DNA from: Octopus vulgaris
Lineage: Eukaryota
DNA: 64,000 nucleotides
Reading direction: 5' to 3'
NCBI GenBank assembly: GCA_951406725.2
Contig: OX597833.1
Span: 53,692,001-53,756,000, forward strand
A program made the translations under genes and the position numbers. Each line of letters starts with the position of its first letter. The first letter of the stretch is position 1. Below are positions 35,626 to 48,141 of this stretch, one piece after another. Under the pieces are notes generated by a model. That model was given only the letters and a program-made list of their open reading frames with translations, was not told where the DNA came from and did not search any database.

Positions 35626-36555
35626 TTACTGTGCTAGAATGAAAAAAAAGTTTACAGCACAAAACCAGAATTGATTAGCGAAATTTGACAACCCTGTCAT
35701 AAAGCTGAGTTGCACAAATATATAAATATATATATATCAATAAGAATCAATATATGTGTGCATGCATGTATGTACATGCACGTGTGTGTGTGTCTGTGTG
35801 TCCCCGTGGAGGTTTACTGATAGTTTTCACTCAATGTTGTCATTTTAAATATCAATGTATTTACCCTGTCACACATCATTTGCCGATTACTAATCATAAA
35901 CCGTATCGGCAAGCCGTAACGATTAAGAGAAAATTAATGTTCGTTCGATTGCAGTGTTGTGTGCATCTGCTTGCTTGACAGTCAGACAAATAAGCTGGTA
36001 TTGGATTAAGAGCTTAGCCCACATTGATGTGACCTAGAAAGAAACAAAAAAGGCAGGAATGCTAAAAACTCTAGCAGGTTATTTAAAGAAAAATGTCAGT
36101 AGCTGTCATTGAATATCTGATTTAGATGGTTTCACTAAATATAGCTACGTTTCATGGGGAATCTGGCCCCAGCAACAGATGCGACCATTATGTTTAGTGC
36201 AGTTGCCCTGATCAGAATAATCTAGTTGCTAAGGAACGCAATTGATACTTCAGTTCGTCAGCGTTTTCGTTTCTTGTGTCATTAACCCTTGGATTAGCAC
36301 CGGTTTAACATTTTGTGAATTTCAGAAATTATTCTCATCATGGCAAAGTGCTGCTGTATTTTTCTGTGCTTTTCCATAAATGAGATGCAGACATGGCTGT
36401 GTGGTTCAGAAGTTTGCTTCCCAACTCCATGGTTTCAGGTTCAGTCCCACTTTATGATATCTTGGGCAAGTGTCTTCTATTATAGTCCCAAGCCAATTAA
36501 TATCTTGTGAGTGGATTTGGTAGATGGAAACTGAAAGAAGCCCACTGTTTATAAA

Positions 36556-36586
<31 letters not shown>

Positions 36587-36589
36587 TTT

Positions 36590-36867
36590 TTGTTTGGCAT
36601 CCTTTCTGTCTCGGGAGACAATGGAGTTGCGCATTTTTTAAAATTTAAAAAAAAAAATTTTTTTTTTAGGTCTAGTCCGGCTGTTATATTTTATTTCCTG
36701 TTACATTTGTTGCTGTGGCTGTGTAGTCCTATCCTGGACAAACACTCCCTCTGGCAGGTACTGCAAATGTAGCGAAGACTGTTCCTGGCTGGTTGTAGTG
36801 CCATGGTCTCTTGTTTATGTCTCTTCCTTTCTTTCCATTTCTCCTCTCTCTTTCTGTCACTCCTCTG
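36590..36867 (-). pseudogene. 5'-truncated RTE (BovB-type) LINE: ORF C-terminus and 3' UTR
   Basis: Minus frame 36867-36691 reads QRSDRKREEKWKERKRHKQETMALQPARNSLRYICSTCQRECLSRIGLHSHSNKCNRK*, the RTE terminal CxxC...SRIGLxSH motif; 3' hairpin TGTCTC-CC-GAGACA then A-rich tail. Confidence 0.8.
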
Positions 36868-36888
36868 TTAGTAGTAATTTAGCTGGCG

Positions 36889-36951
36889 GACTCTGGCTGA
36901 TGAGAAATCAGGCGTCTATTTGGCGCTAAATTTCGAAACCGGTACCAGGTC
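36889..36951 (+). ncRNA. Minimal type-I hammerhead ribozyme motif, core intact
   Basis: Stem I GAC(T)CTGG/CCAGGTC; CTGATGA 36897-903; stem II GAAAT/ATTTC with inner GGCGTC/GGCGCT; GAAA 36935-38; palindromic ACCGGT stem III; GUA cleavage triplet ending at 36944. Confidence 0.8.
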
Positions 36952-37372
36952 AACCAGCATTTACTTGTTCTGACCCATTTGAGGTAAGACATTATTATTG
37001 TTCACTGATATTTTTTCCTATCTTGTCTGTAATAGATTTGTGACTATTCGGTGGTACAGAAGTATTTTTTGACTTCTATCATTAGCGATATAGGTACTCA
37101 TGTACCTTATGTATATATGTACATGTCTAATATCGTATGTATATATTTTATTAATTTGCCTGTACGGCTGATAATTCACTTACCACTTGTGATGGTATTT
37201 TAATAATACCATCCCTATTTTTATATATATATATATATATATAATAGAAATATTAATAATGGACACAGTTTGTGTGTCAAATAGCTAGCTTAAGGTGATG
37301 GCCTCATGGAGCTAATCAGCGACAGCTTTAGTCTTACATCTATAAGACTGCCATATTAATATGGCAATAACA

Positions 37373-37423
<51 letters not shown>

Positions 37424-37934
37424 GTATGTTAGGGTCTCCTTGTCATGACATACAGATTGACTACTCTCTCTCTCTCTCTGCCTCACCCCTTTGAACTGAC
37501 AGATTACCACTAACCACTTTGCTTCTGTACCCCACCACTGTATTCAGCATCTTTTTTTCAAACGCCATACCAAACAATATATATATCTTCTTATTTTAGT
37601 TAATACCTATTGATAATGGCATGAACACCACACAAATTTCATTTCCCAGCCTATAAATAAATCTACAGCTATGTACTTAAGTGAAAAAAAAAAGAAAGAA
37701 AACAAAACAAAAACAAAAAATAAAGCACCACCTTCATTTTATTACTATTTATCATCACTCCAGTTTCATTCAATTCTACCCCTGTCCTGTCCTGTCAATC
37801 TAACAATTTATCAATATTCCAAAGAATAAACCATCTAATCTGTTTATCGGTTAGCTACAGTCTCAAGAAATCTTTCCAGCATAATTATCGTTAAAGCAGG
37901 CCAAAGATATAGGAAAGATTAAAAAAAAATAAAC

Positions 37935-38239
37935 ATATGGGCTTCCGAGGCCCACAGCTCTTCAATATCCTCCCGAAGAACCTGAGAGACCTGCATGGGG
38001 TGGATGCAGATGTCTTTAAAATGAAGCTGGATCTCTTCCTGTCTGGTGTCCCAGATGAACCAACTTCACGGCAGGAGGGGCAGATGAGGGCAGCTGCATC
38101 GAACTCTCTCATGCACCAAATAGCAGTTGCTAGAAAGCCCCCATGAAGTAAAACCAAGTAGCAACACCAAATGGCGGTGCCCCAGCATGGCCACAGCTCA
38201 TAGGCTGGAACTGGAATCAATCAATCAATCAATCAATCA
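37935..38239 (+). pseudogene. 5'-truncated CR1/L2-group LINE: ORF2 C-terminus, 3' UTR and (ATCA)n tail
   Basis: GPQLFNILPKNLRDL...FKMKLDLFLSGVPDEP...RAAASNSL resembles the post-RT C-terminus of these LINEs; short-repeat tail follows. Confidence 0.75.
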
Positions 38240-38264
38240 TATTTATATATATATATATAAAAAT

Positions 38265-38574
38265 ATGGTATGTAAAAAGCACCATCCAAACGTGGCCGAT
38301 GCCAGCGCCACCTTGACTGGCTTCCATGTCGGTGGCATATAAAAAGCACCAACCGATCGTGGCCGTTGCCAGCCTTCCCTGGCACTTGTGCCGGTGGCAT
38401 GTAAAAAGCACCCACTACACTCACAGAGTGGTTGGCGTTAGGAAGGGCATCCAACTATAGAAACACAGCCAGATCAGACTGGAGCCTGGAGCAGCCTCCT
38501 GACTTCCCAGACCCTGGTCGAACTGTCAAACCCATGCTAGCATGGAAAACGGACGTTAAACGATGATGATGATG

Positions 38575-38575
<1 letters not shown>
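38265..38575 (+). mobile_element. SINE-C
   Basis: Ends GGACGTTAAACGATGATGATGATG. Confidence 0.87.
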
Positions 38576-38605
<30 letters not shown>

Positions 38606-38702
38606 ATCCAAACGTGAAAACACAAAGAGAAATCACAACAACGCGAGGACGTGGAACAAATATAGTATTATTGGATGCTCAGGAAGGAAGGGAAGAAGGA
38701 GG

Positions 38703-38737
38703 GTTTAACGTTTCGAGCAGAGCTCTTTGTCAGAAAC
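38703..38737 (-). ncRNA. Degenerate minimal hammerhead motif in an element of about 215 bp between (TA)n tracts (38600-38815)
   Basis: Minus strand GTTT-CTGACAA-A-GAGC TCT GCTC-GAAA-CGTT-AAAC; G8 position reads A. Confidence 0.55.
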
Positions 38738-39105
38738 ATAGGAAAAGGAAAGATCCAGAGAAGGGAAGACGGAGGAAAAAAATCGCCAACGGTACACATA
38801 CGGTCACATTTTGAATATATATATATATATATTATACACATACAGTATATATAGATAAAGTCCGTGCGTGTAAAGATCTTGTTGAAGTTTGGTGACAGCT
38901 AGAGAGATGTCGTGACTTACAAGATGGAAAATAGAGAAATGAATAAAAATAAAATGACAAAAATAAAACTTGAAAAGATTTTGTCGAGTACAAAGTGTGC
39001 ATAAATTGTATCAATAGTCAACAATATAATAATCAATTGGCTACGTAGGAAAGGTGCAGCTAGTATGCTTCTCTACAGCCTTAATGAGTTGACATACCTG
39101 TGGTT

Positions 39106-39136
<31 letters not shown>

Positions 39137-39317
39137 AGTCCAAAGGGTGAGAAGAGAAGAAATGAGGATAGACATAAGAAAATGAAGAGATTCACAGATA
39201 AAAATGTAGCAAGCATGAAACATATACACAAAAAAAATGAGGAAGAAAAAGAAAAAAAAGTACACCACATTTTTCCTTTCAACAAGAAAAACAGGCATTT
39301 CGAACCATCGGGAGAAC

Positions 39318-39360
39318 AAGTAGATTTGGTAAACAGAAACTGAAAGAAGCCCATTGTGTG

Positions 39361-39421
<61 letters not shown>

Positions 39422-39422
39422 T

Positions 39423-39508
<86 letters not shown>

Positions 39509-39692
39509 TGTATTTATGTTTGTCCCCCACCATCACTTGGCAACCGATGCTGATGTGTTTATGTCCCTTTGGCAAAAGTGACCGATGGAGTAAGCAGTAG
39601 GCTTACAAAGAATAAGTGCTAGGGTTAGTTTGTTTGACTAAAGGCAGTGCTCCAGCATGGCTCCAGTCAAATGACTGAAACAAACAAAAGAA
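39318..39692 (+). mobile_element. SINE-A 3' two-thirds with expanded internal (TA)(TG) tract
   Basis: Body and tail match the consensus. Confidence 0.8.
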
Positions 39693-40505
39693 TATCTATC
39701 TATCTATCCATCTATATATATATATATATAGAAACGTAGAGTAGATGAAACCATGGCGACTGAAGAAGGGTTTTTTCCTTGTGTTATTTGTCCTGTACTC
39801 TATTTTTTTGTTGTTTAAGAAAAATGTCCAGTTCCTTGGGTTTGTGTATATGTTTTCGTTTCTCATTGTGTTCAACGTTTTTTTGGTGTCCTGTACTCAT
39901 ATATGCGTGTATATATACATGTAGAGGTAGGTACGTACATATATGTATATATATATGCATATGTTTTATTTATCAATATATTATATATATATATATATAT
40001 TATGCCCGAATAAATAGGTCAGTGATGGCTGGATTACTTTTAAGATCAGAGCTGACCTTGGGTTTAACAAACAACAATAGAATCTGGCTATGTGGATATC
40101 ATCTTTTACCCTGTTAAGAGGAGGAATGTTGATAAACAACAACCAATACAAACTGTGACATATCCCATTCCTAATATATTCTTCTCTTATAAAAGAAGGA
40201 AAAAAAAAAGACACATTGTGGTTGGGAAAAAAGCAATCAATAATTTAAACTTACTTCAAGGCAATATATCAATAATATACTTTCATTTTCTAGTTTTGCT
40301 ACTTATTGACTTGGAGCTTAATCAGGTAAAAACGCAACAGGGCGTGGTAAGTTGTAGTATACAACTACTTCGGCGTGTATGGAATAAAACTTTGCAGTGA
40401 AATACGATTTAAATCACCTTAGCAACAACAACCAGATAAACATGCCAAAAGGCTAAGGTATTAGAAAATAATAAACAATTCTGTCAGAAATGTTCTTTCT
40501 TCTAA

Positions 40506-40544
<39 letters not shown>

Positions 40545-40809
40545 CATCTTGCATGTAACAGGTTCTCTTTTACACAGAGATTCTCAGCTATAACGGAAAG
40601 GTTGATACATATTACTAGAATGGAACATTAAGACAACCAAAACAGTGGTTACGAGCCACCGAAGGAACCTATACAGCAGCAGTCTGTAATCTTTTATGCA
40701 CCATAGACTGGTTTCATGCAAGACAAAATTTTTTGACAGATTGGCGAAGATCAGGTACATAACTAAACACAAAGTGCATACATATATAATTTAATCATTA
40801 CATATGTAA

Positions 40810-40870
<61 letters not shown>

Positions 40871-41080
40871 AAATATTAGGGAATAAATCCAAACTTACAG
40901 GGAAAAATCAGATTTAGGATTGAATCTAATTTTATAGTAAAATATTATATTATATTAAATTAGAGATAAAACCACTATTAGGCAAATCATACAATGGAAA
41001 ACTTAAGCCAATACATAAGATTAATTAATTTATATTATTTTAAATATATCAAAATTATTAAAAAAAGATAATGAGTATAA

Positions 41081-41143
41081 CACTACGATCGTTTCATGGC
41101 TGTCCAATTCGTAATAATTCGAGTTACAGTCAATCTTCAGGTG
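41081..41143 (-). ncRNA. Minimal type-I hammerhead ribozyme motif
   Basis: Minus strand CAC-CTGAAGA-TTGACTGT...ACAGCCAT-GAAA-C GATC G-TA-GTG; palindromic stem III, GUA triplet. Confidence 0.72.
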
Positions 41144-41410
41144 ATTGAAATATTTATCTTAGCGAGGTTTAATATATATATATATATATATAATTTAAAA
41201 TTTAATAAGGGTAGAAATTGATATTAATCAATTAAAACCAGTAGCCCAGCATATTAAAAAAATCCGAAGATTAAAATATTTTTACATACAAAATTTAAAG
41301 GACTGACCACTAAAAGTGGACGGTCAACATGCTAGATATAGACGTCAAATCTCTATTTTCCACAAAGAATATGTTCTCAAATAAAAACTCAGCACAGACC
41401 AAAGGATTAG

Positions 41411-41539
41411 AAATAAGAAAGACAAATGAAAATATACGAAATAAAAACGATTACCCATGTACCGATCAGTTTCGATTGTTGATATCCGCAAGGTACATGG
41501 GTAATCATTTTTATTTCGTATATTTTCATTTGTCTTGCT

Positions 41540-41544
<5 letters not shown>
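41411..41544. repeat. Inverted repeat, 53-bp arms with 2 mismatches, 28-nt loop
   Basis: 41411-41463 is the reverse complement of 41492-41544. Confidence 0.92.
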
Positions 41545-41576
<32 letters not shown>

Positions 41577-41583
41577 GTATATA

Positions 41584-41943
41584 GGCGCAGGAGTGGCTGT
41601 GTGGTAAGTAGCTTGCTAACCAACCACACGGTTGCGGGTTCAGTCCCCACTGCGTGGCATCTTGGGCAAGTGTCTTCTGCTATAGCCTCGGGCCGACCAA
41701 TGCCTTGTGAGTGGATTTGGTAGACGGAAACTGGAAGAAGCCTGTCGTATATATGTATATATATGTATATGTGTGTGTGTTTGTGTGTCTGTGGTTGTCC
41801 CCCTAGCATTGCTTGACAACCGATGCTGGTGTGTTTAGGTCCCCGTCACTTAGCGGTTCGGCAAAAAGAGACCGATAGAATAAGTACTAAAAGGTGGTGC
41901 TCCAGCATGGCCGCAGTCAAATGACTGAAACAAGTAAAAGAGA
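41584..41943 (+). mobile_element. SINE-A with small internal deletion
   Basis: GGCGCAGGAG start, tail present. Confidence 0.9.
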
Positions 41944-42470
41944 AAAAATATTACATAAATAATGTAAGAGCACCCTGCAGATAGTGATAGTCAATAAAAT
42001 AGAAATAAAATTTAAATATTTATTCTTTCTAGGCAGCAAGCTGGCAAAAATCGTTATCACACCTGCAAAAAAAAAGAAAAAAAAGAAAAAGAAAAAAAAA
42101 GAGTTAGCAGAATTTCTTCCAATTTCCCACTCTGTGTTCAAAATGTCACTGGGGGTTGACTTTGCCTTTCATCCTTTCGGGGTTGATAAAATAAATACCT
42201 AATGAACGCTGGGATCGGTGAAATCAACTTACTCTCACCCCCAACCCTCACCTTGAAATTGCTGTGCCAAAATTTGAAACCAATATTTATTCTTTCTGTA
42301 TGGTTTGATACCAAATGATCCATAGCTCATAGGTTGGGGCTCCCTGCTCTAAATAATTGTTCAGTCTGCAAGAAATAACAGTCACTCCCTATTGTCTTAA
42401 CCCTTTTGACACTAACCTGCCCCTACTTCCATGGCACAAAAACCACTCGCTTTAGAATATTCAATTTTAA

Positions 42471-42899
42471 CCCTTTAGTATTTAAACTGGCCTCAATATT
42501 CTACTTGTCTTATGTTCAAACTGGCCAGATTCACCCTGTCACACCTACTCTACAATGTCATTCTAAAAATAAACAATAACATCTACGTGCCACTGGCCCT
42601 TGTGCCGGTGGCACATAAAAGCACCTACTACACTCACAGAGTGGTTGGTGTTAGGAAGGGCATCCAGCTGTAGAAGCTCTGCCAGATCAGATCGGAGCCT
42701 GGTGTGGTCATCTGGTTCGCCAGTCCTCAGTCAAATCGTCCAACCCATGCTAGCATGGAAAGCGGACGTTAAACAATGATGATGATGATGATGATGATGA
42801 TCAGTGAAATCTCAGAGCTACGAGATAATGCATGGTTACTTCAAAACAGTGTGAGATAGAGAGCATTACATTTGACAGAGTAATCTGAATGCTAAAGGG
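42471..42899. mobile_element. piggyBac-like MITE family 1 with nested SINE-C (about 42585-42800)
   Basis: TTAA at 42467-70 and 42900-03; TIR CCCTTTAG / CTAAAGGG. Confidence 0.85.
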
Positions 42900-44609
42900 T
42901 TAAATTAAAACCCAAATGCTTCCTGGCCAGAGATGCTTCACATCGTTAAGCGAAGTAGTGAAAAAAACTACATCATTGAGGATTGAAACCAGTTGGAGAT
43001 TGGCTCAGTTTGACAGACAAAACTTTAGCCATTACTGTTTACAGAAGTACAAAAGGTGTGAAATTAATAAAGAAAGCAAAATCACATACATGCATACATT
43101 ATTTCATTAATGAGATCAATTGATTCTGATGAATCTCATTTATTTATTATATTGTTTTGATAATAATATTTACAGCATTTTTGAATACTGTATTAGCTTC
43201 ACACTCTCATGTTTTAGAGTCTCCAATGATATTTATGGCATGGGGAAAAAATACCTCTCCCCTCCAAAAGAAGCAAACAGACGATTACAAAACTCTCCTT
43301 GTTCGTCTTTTACATATTCATGACATGGCTTGTAATTATGACCAACCGAAAAGGATATAAATACGCAATTACTTATTGTACATGCTGATAAGTGGGGAGG
43401 TCCGTAAAAATACCCCCCCCACCACCACCACCAAATAACCCTTGTGAAGATTTATAATGAAAAGCCCTCATTCAACTTAGCGGTTTTATTTTATTATTAT
43501 CATTCTTTCACAAGCTGTTATATCTGTTAGATTTTTTTTTCTTTTATGAAATGAATACATAACCACTACTTATAAAAGTGTGAGCTTTTGAAACAAGAAA
43601 GAAAAAAATACTTCAACAAAAAGGCCTTCCAATTACCAATTTGATCCATACAGCAACCGTTTGTGTGTGTATATCAGATATCGAATGAAATGAAGGCTTA
43701 ATTTTATAGCATCATCAAAGAAATCCCTCCGTACCAGTCAACTGCCGATAATGAGTAGTTTAACAGCCTGAAAAGGGTTAATGTTATAATGGTAGGTAAT
43801 AGTGTCAAAGTGATTAATTTTCACACCTCTTCAGATCCAGTTGGTGCAAGAGAGCTTAGACCATATACATGGTAATAGTGAAAATTTATAATAATTTAGG
43901 GGGATAAAGAGCAGGCAATCATATTAACATTCAGTACATTCGCCACTCCTTATCTCTTTCACTCCAGATAGATCTCCTACACCTCGCCATTGCCACCACT
44001 ACCATTGCTACCACTGTGACTAAATCCATCTTGCAAAACTCTATATTTAAACATTGTTTAGTAAATCATTACGCCAGAACAGACATTTCTCTTTTGAAAC
44101 TAGATGCAGACGTGGCTGTGTGGTGCCTTGGACAAATATCTAAGATAGCCTCAAGTTGACCAAAGCATTGTAAGTGGATTTGGTGGACAGAAACTGAAAG
44201 GAGTTCATCCTATGTACATATATGTACATGTGTGTGTGTGTGTAATATAACAGATGGATTGTGGTTCACAACAGTTGTTTCAGGTGTGGCTTTTATTGAT
44301 GAACAGAAATGCTACATCAGGCACAAAGAACCATTTTCATCAGGTGAGTACAGGTAAGAATTAACTTCTTCAGAACAAGTACATAGTGCCATATGACTCT
44401 ACTGACCCACATTTGGCCAGATACATATATATATATATATATATAAATAATTTTAGTGACAGAACCACCTTCAACTCAATCAACACTGAAAGGTTTTATA
44501 CCCGACCACACCATAAAATGTTAAAAATTAAAATCTTACACTAACTATATCTATTCTGAATCCTATATTTTCTGTTTATAAGACTACACGTGTTTCATGA
44601 AAGTACTTT

Positions 44610-44752
44610 GGTATTAGGAAGGGCATCCAGCTGTAGAAACACTGCCAGATCAGACTGGAGCCTGGTGCAGCCTCTTGACTTCCCAGACCCCAGTCGAACC
44701 ATCCAACCCATGCTAGAACCATCCAACCCATGCTGGAAAACAGATGATGATG
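44610..44752 (+). mobile_element. SINE-C 3' fragment
   Basis: TTAGGAAGGGCATCCAGCTGTAGAAAC...GATGATGATG. Confidence 0.8.
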
Positions 44753-45228
44753 TACACACACACACACACATAAGTGCATGTATTTGTATCTCCTTGTCTT
44801 AATATCATGTGGTAGTTGTAAATGAGTGTCACTGTCATATAAGCAACATCATTCATCTTCAATATTCTGTGAAAACAAGTCTGGCCTTGGGAAAATATTA
44901 CCCTGTTTGGAAACAGGTGAAAGTTGGCGACAAGAAAGGCATCCATCCAACCATAGATGATTGGCCTCAATAAACTCCATGCAATTTATGCAAGCATGGG
45001 AAAAGTGGACAGTGGATGGACATAAAAACAATGACAATAATAATAATGGTAACGCTATGACATTTCTTCATTTTAATTCCCGTCACAACTGCTTTCTAAA
45101 TCTTCCGCACAGTGCTAGATAATATTTATGCCCCTGCTTCTTTGATTGTATAAGCACCAGTTGAAAGATACATACTGCAGCTGCCAGCATGGACGCATCT
45201 CATCTCGAGTTACTACTACTACTACTAC

Positions 45229-45284
<56 letters not shown>

Positions 45285-45988
45285 CTTCTTCTTTATCTTT
45301 GTTGCTTCACTAGGCTTAATCTGCCAAAACAAACATTCCTGGTCTGAAGTAACAATGGTCTCTAATTATCAACTGTAATTGAGAGTTTTCTTATTCGTGA
45401 GGTTTAGTGTGGAGTACATTGACCCGGATACCATACCAGTACATGGCGGTTGCTTATGAAATCAACACTAAGGAATAGAAGAAAGGTTTCCCCGATAGAT
45501 AGAAGAGGAATTCTTATTAAATGTCAGTTGTGCACCGTAAGAGAAATTCATAGCTAGAACGAATTGCATTGTAAAAGAGTCAGTGCACTTTGTGCCAATG
45601 TGGTTCCACGTTAAGCCTCTACGCTAGCCCTGGGTCGACTTGTGCCTTGTGAATGAATTTGGTGGATGGGGTATAAATGGAAGCATTTCCTTTGTGTGAT
45701 TGTTTGTCTCCTTTCTCGCCACTTGGCAACCGGTATTGGTCGATAAATAAAGTACCAGCTTCACACTGGGGTCGATGTAATCGACTTAATACCTATGTCT
45801 GTCCTTGTTTGTCCCCTCTATGTTTAGCCCCTTGTGGGTAATAAAGAAATAGGTGTTGGTTTGTTTACATCCATATAACTTAGCAATGCAGCAACAGAAG
45901 AAGACTTCAGAAAAAGAAGTACTGGCTAACCCCATTCAAGGCAATAACATGTCAAAAACATTTATAGTAAAGGGTGGGCTAGGGTTAC

Positions 45989-46355
45989 TTAATTACTTGT
46001 GGTGACATTCACCCTGGGCGGGTTGAGTCGGCTTCTTCTACCACGGAAGAAGTTTTGTGGGAATATGTGGATTTCACAAGTGGTCCCCAACAATCCCACA
46101 TGTGCAGACATCCTGTTTGCCGCAGATTGTCCGCAGACGCAGGGACAGAACTACCGTGGAGCCGCTGGTTGCCGAAACAGACATTCCGAGGACTTTCACC
46201 AGAGCCCCATCTGCTGGGTTGTGGCCCTAATACCACTCAGTGTCAGACCAATCCGCCTTAGGTGGCCCTACCAGGAACCGAAGTTCCCGACGGCATAGCT
46301 CTGACACTACCCGTTGCCAGCGTCCCCACCACGGTGAGGAGGATATGGGCTTTGG
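45989..46355 (-). mobile_element. Short non-autonomous RTE-derived element (5' UTR fused to 3' end)
   Basis: Perfect 13-bp TSD GGGCTAGGGTTAC (45976-88, 46356-68); 3' end is 26/30 identical to the RTE end at 50906-50935; 5' part resembles RTE leaders. Confidence 0.8.
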
Positions 46356-47683
46356 GGGCTAGGGTTACAATAAACCCGAACCAAAGCAGTCCTTAAATAC
46401 ATCCGGCTATCCTCGCTTATCACTGATCTGGGATAATATGGTTCAGTCAATTGTGAACCCTGTTGCACTTATCACAAACTGACCTTTGATAAGATGGGTC
46501 AGCAATCAGTCAAAGGTTCTTCGACTGCAAAAGAACACCCCAGTAAACCATCCACAGTAATCAGGACAACCATGGGGTGGGGGGTGGGGGTCTTATAACA
46601 AAACCTATTTTACCCACATATTCTGTTTTTCCATTAATTACAGACTCATGTAAAACAGTGTCTCTCTCTCTCTCACTCGTTTTTTTTTTTTTTTTTTGAA
46701 TCAAGCACCCATGATAAAACGAGGGGTAGATGTAGTAAGATATCTGAAACTATCCAATATTTCTACAAACAGCAGGCTGACATGTTTAAACCAGCACCCA
46801 AAGCACATTCTGCTTTGCTGGTGTGTTGCCCTGCATACCCGTGTATATGTGTGTGGGTACGCAGTCAATAATGCTGCTGCATCTCTTACTATAATTTTAA
46901 AAAAAAAACCAAAAAAAAAAAAACCCTCCAAAAAAAACCCCCCCAAAATGTCCCACTGGTTGCTTTGCTTACATAGTATTCAATTACTAACAGTCCTCTT
47001 TCTATGATGCAGAGTCAAATACTGCTGTCTTCACATTGTTCTGCTGCGAAGGTCATTGCCATCAGCTTACTCTGACTCCGTTTAAGCGATGCTCATTGTT
47101 AGCTTCCAGACTTACGATTCAGATTCAACCTCCACCACCCGACTGGAATACAATTTCATTATTTACGACGGAAGAATGGCTGTTAATCTGTCCGGGGGAC
47201 AAAAGGAACAACAACCAGTCGCTTCCACAGAAATCACCTCTCAAGATTATCATTGCTATTCATCCTCTTTCCTATTATCACGTTAACTTTTGAATTTTAA
47301 TGATTAATTAGCAAGAATTTTGTCCTCATCTCGCTTAATCCTCATTCAACAAGTTATAATATTAACAGAGAAAGAGAGAAAACCACTTTGCAATTATTCC
47401 TCGCCGAGCTGTTTTTTCCTTTCCACACGAGATTTGCTTATGCTTCAGAAATTCTTGCCAAACAAGCTAGACACACATGTGGTAATCATAATAAGTAAAA
47501 CACACACACACACGCGCGCACACACACAAACACACACATTCTCTCCTAATAAACAAAAATGAAATATGCATCTTTACGTGATCTGTGACCTTGAAGGAAC
47601 GATTGTACAGAGCACACAAGTCAGAGAGGCTCTCTGCCTCGATTTCAGGGAAGGAAACGGGAGAAGGAGGAAGAAAGATCGTT

Positions 47684-47899
47684 TACTCTTTACTCTCTTT
47701 TTACTTGTTTCAGTTATTTGACTGCGGCCATGCTGGAGCACCACCTTTTTAGTCGAGCAAATCGATCCCGGGGACTTATTCTTTGTAAGCCTAGTACTTA
47801 TTCTATCGGTCTCTTTTGCCGAACTGCTAAGTGACGGGGACGTAAACACACCAACATTGGTTGTCAAGCAACGCTAGGGGGACAAACACAGACACACAA

Positions 47900-47905
<6 letters not shown>
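47684..47905 (-). mobile_element. SINE-A 3' half
   Basis: Reverse complement of the tail. Confidence 0.87.
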
Positions 47906-47945
<40 letters not shown>

Positions 47946-48141
47946 GACTGAAGATTGAAGGCTTCGAATGTCCCGTCCGTGTTTTTTGTATCGTCTTCTA
48001 AATGTTTTACGTTCTTGTCCCAGTTTGTATTTTTCTACACATACATACACACACACACACCCCCCACATGCATGGCACCTTGGGCAAGTATCTTCTACCA
48101 TAGCTCCAGACCAACAAAAGCTTTGTGAGTGGATTTGATAT

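Follow-up and report, generated by a model that had tools for sequence, protein, structure and literature searches.

The 64,000 nucleotides of Octopus vulgaris DNA analysed here (the window; contig OX597833.1) hold a pile-up of repeat ends, truncated on the 5' side, from seven or more unrelated high-copy families that are likely Penelope-like, and in two of these families, C and H, the ends appear to carry a hammerhead core whose strands follow a rewired order. Taken as a whole, we consider it probable that the hammerhead-like sites are truncated ends of Penelope-like elements (PLEs) from five type I and two rewired families, the site at 40705 being the end of a DNA transposon (Table 1).

Table 1. 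Features in the window, with positions counted from its first nucleotide.
Feature	Positions	Strand	Description
Family A end	36866..37220	+	minimal type I hammerhead; fixed 3' end ~37220, then (TA)n
Family A core	36892..36949 (complete type I motif)	+	CUGAUGA 36897-36903; GAAACCGGUA 36935-36944
Family B end	38602..38816	-	3' end 38602; (TA)n both sides
Family B core		-	CUGACAA 38733-38727; GAAACGUU 38714-38707
Family C	39730..39982	+	5'-truncated copy of candidate rewired hammerhead element; 3' end ~39982, then (TA)n
Family C strands, first part		+	GAAA 39731-39734; predicted stem III strand to 39738; predicted bridging-helix strand 39747-39752
Family C strands, second part		+	predicted stem I strand 39755-39759; CUGAAGA 39760-39766
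Family D, one MITE end	40677..40821	-	GAAAC 40715-40711 subterminal; flank 40669-40676
Family D, other MITE part	41973..42034	-	87% to intact 237-nt copy in L066
Family E end	40866..41170	-	3' end 40866; (TA)n both sides
Family E core	41081..41143 (complete type I motif)	-	CUGAAGA 41140-41134; GAAACGAUCGUA 41095-41084
Family F end	41195..41545	-	direct part from 41493; inverted arm 41492-41545; (TA)n both sides
Family F 3' half		-	GAAACUGAUCGGUA 41473-41460
Family G end	44447..44615	-	5'-truncated against headless SINE piece; 3' end 44447, then (TA)n
Family G 3' half		-	GAAACACGUGUA 44596-44585
Family H remnant	47945..48029	+	last bases of predicted stem I strand, then CUGAAGA 47948-47954; absent from the earlier note

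An earlier note on this DNA had listed seven sites, four as complete or near-complete hammerheads and three as isolated 3' halves (GAAAC-N-GTH), and GAAAC with a short self-complementary stretch, or a near match, is present at all seven, six of which hold a fixed place in families whose ends are constant. The motifs at 36889, 38703 and 41081 are indeed complete or nearly so, but 41459(-) is a 3' half only, its apparent stem I being a 54-nt inverted arm (41492-41545, 100% identical); among the supposed halves, 44582(-) stands, but 40705(-) is not a hammerhead and 39731(+) belongs to the rewired motif; a type I core was found in homologues of two of the four half motifs and not of the other two. 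The region is not a hotspot, as had been proposed: the density of 47/Mb in the window compares with 51/Mb in a blind sample of 100 10-kb stretches of the genome (1 Mb), which is genome-average; three whole motifs lie in the 64 kb, and 4 of the 100 blind 10-kb stretches have at least three. An Rfam search of the window gave no match at the gathering score, and the 150 weak matches listed of 314 were microsatellite noise with no hammerhead among them. The blind megabase contained 32 perfect-core motifs against none in each of five shuffles, and whole motifs had (TA)n within 300 nt downstream in 20/34 cases and upstream in 8/34 (null 0.207, P = 1.3e-6); for these motifs a chance explanation is refuted. 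The claimed downstream bias did not extend to half motifs (58/233 with (TA)n within 300 nt downstream, P = 0.07), which numbered 252 against 119-148 in shuffles, about half being expected by chance.

In families A, B, E, F and G a minimal type I hammerhead is followed 100-280 nt on by a fixed 3' end at (TA)n. The type I core stands upstream of GAAA in 10/11 homologues of A, 21/21 of B, 20/20 of E, 15/21 of F and 14/20 of G, counting single changes, and these hammerheads are predicted to work as a dimer. The window copy of B is complete but carries a G8-to-A change (CUGACAA), the family reading CUGACGA in 19/21 homologues. TA lies no more than 25 nt from the family 3' end in 9/11 copies of A, 21/21 of B, 19/21 of C, 20/20 of E, 17/21 of F and 13/20 of G, and in 0/21 of D; a family end without TA occurs in up to 7/20 copies (G). 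Fixed 3' ends with ragged 5' ends characterize A, B, C, E, F and G, and an inverted 5' arm, a partial tandem or both were found in A, C, E, F and G: inverted arms in 10/20 homologues of E, 14/21 of F and 6/20 of G, and partial tandems in three copies of C, four of F and 3/11 homologues of A, with units of 446-448 nt in A (non-coding), 812-856 nt in C and 523 nt in one homologue of F. Neither feature was seen in 21 copies of B. An optional 3' tail, scored by script in C and G only, was present in 2/21 and 8/20 homologues, respectively, extending G by ~100 nt, and family E has a second 3' end. For most motifs these features bear out the proposal of diverse (TA)n-anchored Penelope-type termini, with 40705, a DNA-transposon end, and 39731, part of a rewired motif and no type I half, as the exceptions. 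The further suggestion that a SINE insertion cuts 44582 finds no support: past the SINE piece, itself headless, no further part of the element follows.

Judged from its sequence, family D at 40705 is a small hAT-type DNA transposon (MITE). A hammerhead reading was rejected: none of 21 homologues has TA at this position, copies ending ~25-30 nt past GAAAC, and a core upstream of GAAA was matched in 2/21, loosely and without a stem test. An intact 237-nt copy (1/21, locus L066) has terminal inverted ends and a perfect 8-bp target duplication; a crude search found no far end in the remaining homologues. Families E, F and a SINE are nested between the two parts in the window. In its short length, its inverted ends starting CA and its 8-bp target duplication, D resembles MITEs of a putative hAT-Charlie type. 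As about half of the half motifs arise by chance, an isolated GAAAC-N-GTH is poor evidence for a hammerhead.

The site at 39731(+) was rejected as a type I 3' half, since the type I core was upstream in 0/21 homologues and CUGAAGA lies downstream instead. The order in families C and H is stem II 5' strand, bridging helix, cut site, GAAA, stem I, CUGANGA, which we model in C as a hammerhead core in a rewired, knotted order with the chain open between A9 and stem II; the window copy, starting ~12 nt past the predicted cut, lacks both the cut site and the 5' strand of stem II. In the C group this fold, drawn by eye on the same sequences with some seeds taken from our own descriptor, had 89.5% of cells paired and 13/21 pairs changed on both sides, against 36-46% in slid controls, and its score was reached by 0/500 shuffles, a test that sequence relatedness inflates. 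Across the 11 sequences of the group C3, G5, A6, A9 and U16.1 were invariant and U4 and G8 nearly so. The upstream stem II covaried at 3/5 pairs and replaced a nearer candidate partner, GAAG just before the cut site, which was 77% paired and showed no covariation. Readings of C as type II or type GCS with a GUC near 39790 were also discarded, as stems I and III pair with the upstream site. Nine of 22 C copies start 2-12 nt past the predicted cut and the other 13 at least 96 nt upstream of GAAA; in the background set 0/7 C copies start near the cut. No coding match was found for the family C unit.

Family H is, under the same model, a second rewired hammerhead family. Covariation was found at 11/16 pairs of the H group and, in a separate test, at 3/6 of the bridging helix, the strand directly after CUGANGA pairs at 39%, and in the background set 4/9 H copies start near the predicted cut. 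The window copy has (TA)n upstream; its downstream TA tract is missing. C and H were also considered as a single long element, with one case in which they abut (locus L257), but the two families do not align. Read by eye, the 3' ends of Naiad_Obim and Naiad_Ovul have the same four helices as the rewired motif, and a Naiad-tail motif gave 375 matches in this analysis versus 0 for a reversed control. Naiad-type copies that reach the upstream stem II form 5-6 of its 6 pairs in 15/17 cases; of 20 Naiad-type copies, 3 start near the predicted cut. No Naiad ORF, the marks of which are an N-terminal GIY-YIG domain with CxC and DKA motifs, was confirmed in six Naiad-tail copies extended by 4 kb. Craig et al. 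(2021, PMC8557442), in the sections drawn on here, report no canonical hammerhead in Naiads and flag Naiad_Ovul as HHR_half_core. By analogy of layout, C and H are likely mobilised by Naiad-type enzymes. We lean towards the interpretation that Naiad-type PLEs, with C and H as their non-autonomous passengers, rely on a hammerhead that is active, pseudoknotted several times over and left open where A9 would meet stem II, that C retains the two candidate partners of stem II as an intermediate or a switch between this form and type SGC, and that the ribozyme would cut in vivo, because copies start just past the cut. With the same leaning, it may represent a seventh wiring beyond the six block orders and supply the ribozyme thought to be missing from Naiads.

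Coding partners were sought by a GIY-YIG family search, in which 150 of 6136 candidates were scored, and by comparing five PLE proteins with all loci. In the loci examined, none of the families A, C, E, F, G and H had such a partner attached, and the 64-kb window gave no PLE protein match. Coding Neptune-type ORFs of the genome have DKG plus a linker cysteine motif, and one coding Neptune family (RT plus GIY-YIG) carries the hammerhead motif at 22/30 loci, followed by TA 103-148 nt later in 20/22. The coding link of family B is to a sister family only, its 3' end being 65-68% alike to that of this coding Neptune family. An empty-site comparison of four contig sets with 36300-42300 was swamped by repeats, with no usable joint among the matches listed. 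We infer that TA-rich DNA would be nicked by a GIY-YIG endonuclease and that the reverse transcriptase would begin at a set position within the element, 100-280 nt beyond the hammerhead motif; such an internal start would leave every copy ending at (TA)n. Families A, C and F, with non-coding tandem units, would likely be non-autonomous; A, B, E, F and G would use the known minimal type I hammerhead, and C and H the rewired form. Internal initiation has been demonstrated for one Poseidon element (Frangieh et al. 2024, PMC11167929), which, in the part of that report used here, resembles the window families in its fixed internal starts downstream of the hammerhead, two sites that give an optional tail, and an AT-rich target.

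Accidental juxtaposition of short motifs with (TA)n in a TA-dense genome is extremely unlikely as an account of the pattern: with 25 TA tracts per 10 kb of window it fits 40705 and about half of the half motifs, which show no clear TA bias, but not the strand-biased whole motifs absent from shuffles, nor the six sites fixed in families with constant ends. A subtler possibility is that the elements make or grow the (TA)n themselves, by slippage at an AU-rich start site, instead of targeting it. In A, C and G the bases that immediately follow the 3' end of tandem or tailed copies are AT-rich, and TA before the 5' end is inconstant (11/21 in B, 0/10 in E), as such growth would have it; we nevertheless consider it unlikely because in the window (TA)n flanks B, C, E and F at either end, E and F sit in the AT-rich middle of an older MITE, and (TA)n is a published PLE target, as the consulted part of PMC8557442 states.

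For the C motif itself, an ordinary type SGC hammerhead, with the open form confined to H and the Naiad tails, is rather improbable. C and H do follow the type SGC block order (cut site, GAAA, CUGANGA, stems I and III), and within the C group 39/40 cells are paired between the stem II strand and the strand that follows CUGANGA (1/4 pairs covarying), with the closing C-G pair present in 11/11; these pairs are mostly G-U, however, their level was equalled by 72/500 shuffles, and it is the upstream strand that covaries at more pairs (3/5). Elsewhere the post-core strand pairs poorly, as noted for H, and forms at most two contiguous pairs in 20 Naiad-type copies. We are somewhat doubtful, too, of the view that all these motifs are conserved protein-binding folds or non-cleaving relics and that insertion needs only the internal start site. 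Metazoan minimal hammerheads cleave weakly in vitro, according to the part of PMC4209133 consulted, type I copies seldom begin at the cut (2/21 in B), and two abundant coding Neptune families have family-wide core changes (UUGAUAA and CUGUUGA). Cleavage may indeed be dispensable, because of these altered cores and because hammerhead mutants still insert in vitro in the experiments we draw on from PMC11167929. Against relics stand the core invariance of the C group while its helices covary and the C copies that start just past the predicted cut.

The type I part of these results is already published, ordinary Penelope biology. Families A, B, E, F and G match the pLTR minimal type I hammerheads of metazoan PLEs (Cervera and de la Pena 2014, PMC4209133) in their short stem I, long stem II, unpaired base after A9 and palindromic stem III, and in occurring as many families within one genome, for the most part as single truncated copies, with pairs on opposite strands; as far as the portion of that paper used here goes, nothing substantial differs for the five, and C and H fall outside its descriptor. 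With the Neptune and Naiad PLEs of PMC8557442, again from part of the paper, the window families have in common 5' truncation, partial tandems, inverted arms, tails and a (TA)n preference; they differ in having no joined ORF, and the octopus Naiad tails take the rewired fold. Non-LTR retrozymes are described, in the excerpts at hand (PMC7229834; bioRxiv 10.64898/2026.07.22.740005), as non-coding tandem units of 150-450 bp, each with a type I hammerhead, expressed as circular RNA and proposed to be PLE derivatives; family A lies at the top of that range and the F and C units are longer, and, unlike retrozymes, the copies here lie scattered as partial tandems that carry one hammerhead and end at a fixed point beside (TA)n. 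Closest to C and H are the type SGC, CSG and GCS hammerheads (Eckert et al. 2023, PMC10085705), which, in the text consulted, share the non-circular order of cut site, GAAA and CUGANGA, pseudoknotted stems and an additional helix that connects stems I and II. That scheme, however, takes CUGANGA to be contiguous with a stem II strand, whereas here the covarying partner lies 5' of the cut site, and its examples are metatranscriptome RNAs whereas C and H are animal retroelement ends. No description of the upstream-stem-II layout was found among the papers that the literature searches listed.

These results mean that the octopus genome carries whole hammerhead motifs at about 30-50 per Mb, those in the window all having been missed by Rfam. 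Should the rewired motif cleave, a hammerhead core does not require A9 to be linked to stem II, the block rule for listing permutations fails, and the 'half core' entries in Naiads are accounted for; it would also offer a direct way to ask whether cleavage shapes PLE insertions.

Whole hammerhead motifs exceed chance in this genome and tend to lie upstream of TA tracts. A descriptor scan of a blind sample (100 stretches of 10 kb at round coordinates, 1 Mb in all, with 5 shuffles) returned 32 perfect-core type I motifs versus 0 in every shuffle, and 51 with at most one core change versus 0–3. Leaving out 12 motifs less than 300 nt from an edge, together with 5 inner copies from a single tandem array, 20/34 whole motifs had TA within the next 300 nt and 8/34 had it upstream, compared with 20.7% of random positions (p = 1.3e-6). 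The pattern described in an earlier note, hammerheads followed by (TA)n, holds up for whole motifs, and it was known before. It did not carry over to half motifs (252 in the blind 1 Mb versus 119–148 in shuffles), which had no clear TA bias (58/233, p = 0.07), and chance accounts for about half of those of the GAAAC-palindrome-UH form. Nor are the ends concentrated in about 11 kb, as had been proposed: the window, with 3 whole motifs per 64 kb, is at the genome average (at least 3 in 4/100 blind stretches). TA tracts number 14.4 per 10 kb in 36870–47990, versus 13.9 in the first 60 blind stretches; the figure for the whole window is 25.

Features in the window and in loci from the same genome
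Position (strand)	Family	Feature
36889 (+)	A	complete minimal type I hammerhead
38703 (-)	B	complete hammerhead, single core change
39731 (+)	C	rewired hammerhead, truncated copy
40705 (-)	D	hAT-type MITE end
41081 (-)	E	complete minimal type I hammerhead
41459 (-)	F	3' half; 54-nt inverted arm resembling stem I
44582 (-)	G	3' half, truncated against headless SINE piece
47945 (+)	H	rewired hammerhead, truncated copy
37213–37220 (+), 40866–40881 (-), 41199–41211 (-); L125–L142 tail end		CCCT ends
16002, 29716, 31634, 34326, 36153, 49876, 60825, 61834		further GAAAC-palindrome-UH half motifs
37930–38240		resembles a LINE 3' end with (ATCA)n tail; deeply covered by DNA contigs
54520 and 55520 (-)		same flanking sequence at a spacing of exactly 1000 nt (local duplication)
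L145 (20000001–20010000)		tandem array in which every 353–359-nt unit has a perfect type I hammerhead; five units on one strand, two on the other
L238:268–3968 (also L235–L240)		young Neptune-type family; ORFs of ~466 and ~781 aa that overlap
L238 3' UTR; L336–L365		family-wide core changes (UUGAUAA and CUGUUGA) in two abundant coding families
L182, 730–2420 (-)		PLE-type ORF end unlike Neptune
L299, 7829–8587 (-)		PLE-type ORF end unlike Neptune

The genome (2.8 Gb) was searched with each listed motif plus its flank, the TA tract being excluded except for A. The best 40 candidates per search were scored (of 78 for D, 400 for G and about 2000–2900 for A, B, C, E and F) and 12 or 22 loci taken per family, so that homologue counts describe best matches, a non-random sample, and exclude the window's own copy and, for E and G, a single duplicate per family. 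Among these, an upstream type I core was found in A 10/11, B 21/21, E 20/20, F 15/21 and G 14/20, and TA after the family 3' end in A 9/11, B 21/21, C 19/21, E 20/20, F 17/21 and G 13/20. Several individual readings changed: F had passed for a complete or near-complete motif; C, taken for an ordinary 3' half, had an upstream type I core in 0/21 best-match homologues; and G is a 3' half as described, but the SINE insertion said to cut it was not borne out, with no remainder of the element in the window beyond the SINE piece. The supposed half at D is a DNA-transposon end, with TA at the family end in 0/21 best-match homologues, which are mostly 73–82% alike and end ~25–30 nt past GAAAC. A perfect 8-bp target duplication surrounds one intact 237-nt copy (L066), which aligns to the window in two parts (40669–40821 and 41973–42034); E, F and a SINE are therefore nested inside D.

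Some families have more than one end. G is ~100 nt longer in 8/20 best-match copies (L125, L128, L129, L131, L135, L138, L139 and L142), and because (TAA)n often takes the place of (TA)n at this second end, the target may depend on which start site is used. In E, a second end lies ~74 nt earlier in 10/20 background matches. The A, E and F ends and the long G end have in common CCCT and then AT-rich bases directly before the microsatellite, possibly a shared start-site signal.

Inverted 5' arms occur among best-match homologues of E (10/20), F (14/21), G (6/20) and C (1/21), and partial tandems in A (3), C (3), F (4) and E (1); B had neither among 21 best-match copies. Tandem units of A (446–448 nt), F (523 nt) and C (812–856 nt) matched none of the PLE proteins they were compared with. 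Inverted 5' arms, partial tandems and tails are structures described for PLEs (PMC8557442). A GIY-YIG search (150 of 6136 candidates scored) located coding elements that combine RT with a C-terminal GIY-YIG and carry a DKG and a linker cysteine motif, the last two being features given for Neptune (PMC8557442). In one coding Neptune-type family the terminal hammerhead has a UUGAUAA core and a weak stem I, TA following ~76 nt later in many copies; a U3–A8 swap, as in this core, is reported in PMC4209133. In a second, a hammerhead lies within 1.5 kb of the ORF in 22/30 loci, with TA 103–148 nt later in 20/22. Since coding PLEs end in a hammerhead and then TA, the noted architecture is their normal 3' end here. 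The second coding family's hammerhead end is 65–68% like B over 125–155 nt. For A, C, E, F, G and H, the loci examined yielded no attached ORF. In the L238 family, a T TTT TTA heptamer lies in phase within the ORF overlap, a possible -1 frameshift site; the second ORF has its own ATG, and the 781-aa frame is intact in many copies. Of the L182 and L299 ORF ends, which we guess to be of clades Penelope/Poseidon and Hydra, one precedes a type I hammerhead that has TA 73 nt further on, and one lacks the cysteine spacing usual in the endonuclease.

Of note is the putative rewired hammerhead of C and H, in which CUGANGA lies ~29 nt downstream of GAAA and whose fold the alignments support. Its predicted strands come in this order: stem II (5' strand), bridging helix, stem III with UH and stem I, followed by stem II (3' strand), GAAA, stem III, bridging helix and stem I again, and last CUGANGA. 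As the whole CUGANGA is kept on the last strand, the chain would open between A9 and stem II. Profile searches of the collected loci returned 26 matches of C type and 41 of H type (11 and 15 distinct sequences), with 4 (C) and 6 (H) seeds drawn from our own descriptor. Scored on the same sequences on which the fold was drawn, and by statistics that ignore kinship, the C group is paired in 89.5% of cells, and 13/21 pairs change on both sides; its score was reached by 0/500 shuffles and slid versions are 36–46% paired. On the same terms the H group is 85.4% paired, with covariation at 11/16 pairs; for the bridging helix, scored separately, the figure is 3/6. The strict rewired-layout descriptor matched 6 times in the blind 1 Mb versus 0–2 in shuffles and 0 times in the window, where the copies are truncated.

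In the published type SGC, the strand after CUGANGA forms stem II (PMC10085705), whereas in H this strand is 39% paired. For C, type SGC is a possible reading, because the post-CUGANGA strand pairs with the stem II strand in 39/40 cells, although these pairs are mostly G-U and 72/500 shuffles were equally high. No published description of the rewired hammerhead was found in the searched portions of the literature, including those of PMC7229834, PMC6962438 and bioRxiv 10.64898/2026.07.22.740005.

Octopus Naiads are listed with (TA)n preference, one flagged HHR_half_core, in the supplement of PMC8557442, and by eye both octopus Naiad 3' ends have the same four helices as the rewired motif. The published octopus Naiad tail motif has 375 matches in this genome; of the first 20, 17 reach the upstream stem II strand, 15 of these with 5–6 of 6 positions paired, and the post-core strand has at most 2 contiguous pairs. 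We infer, rather than observe, that Naiad enzymes mobilise C and H, because C and H share layout but not sequence with Naiad tails and six Naiad-tail copies extended by 4 kb had no confirmed ORF.

Copy starts near the predicted cut are suggestive of cleavage. Among best matches, 9/22 C copies, the window's included, begin 2–12 nt past it, and the remaining 13/22 extend at least 96 nt upstream of GAAA; starts no more than 16 nt past the cut number C 0/7, H 4/9 and B 2/21 in the background set, and 3/20 among the first 20 of the 375 Naiad-type matches. The families, their fixed ends, the TA bias, the covarying folds and the coding PLEs with the same ends are observations. By extension from PMC11167929 and PMC4209133, a PLE protein would bind RNA beyond the ribozyme and nick AT-rich DNA, reverse transcription would begin at one or two internal sites, short copies would come from its early stops, and cutting tandem transcripts to unit length would fall to the ribozyme.
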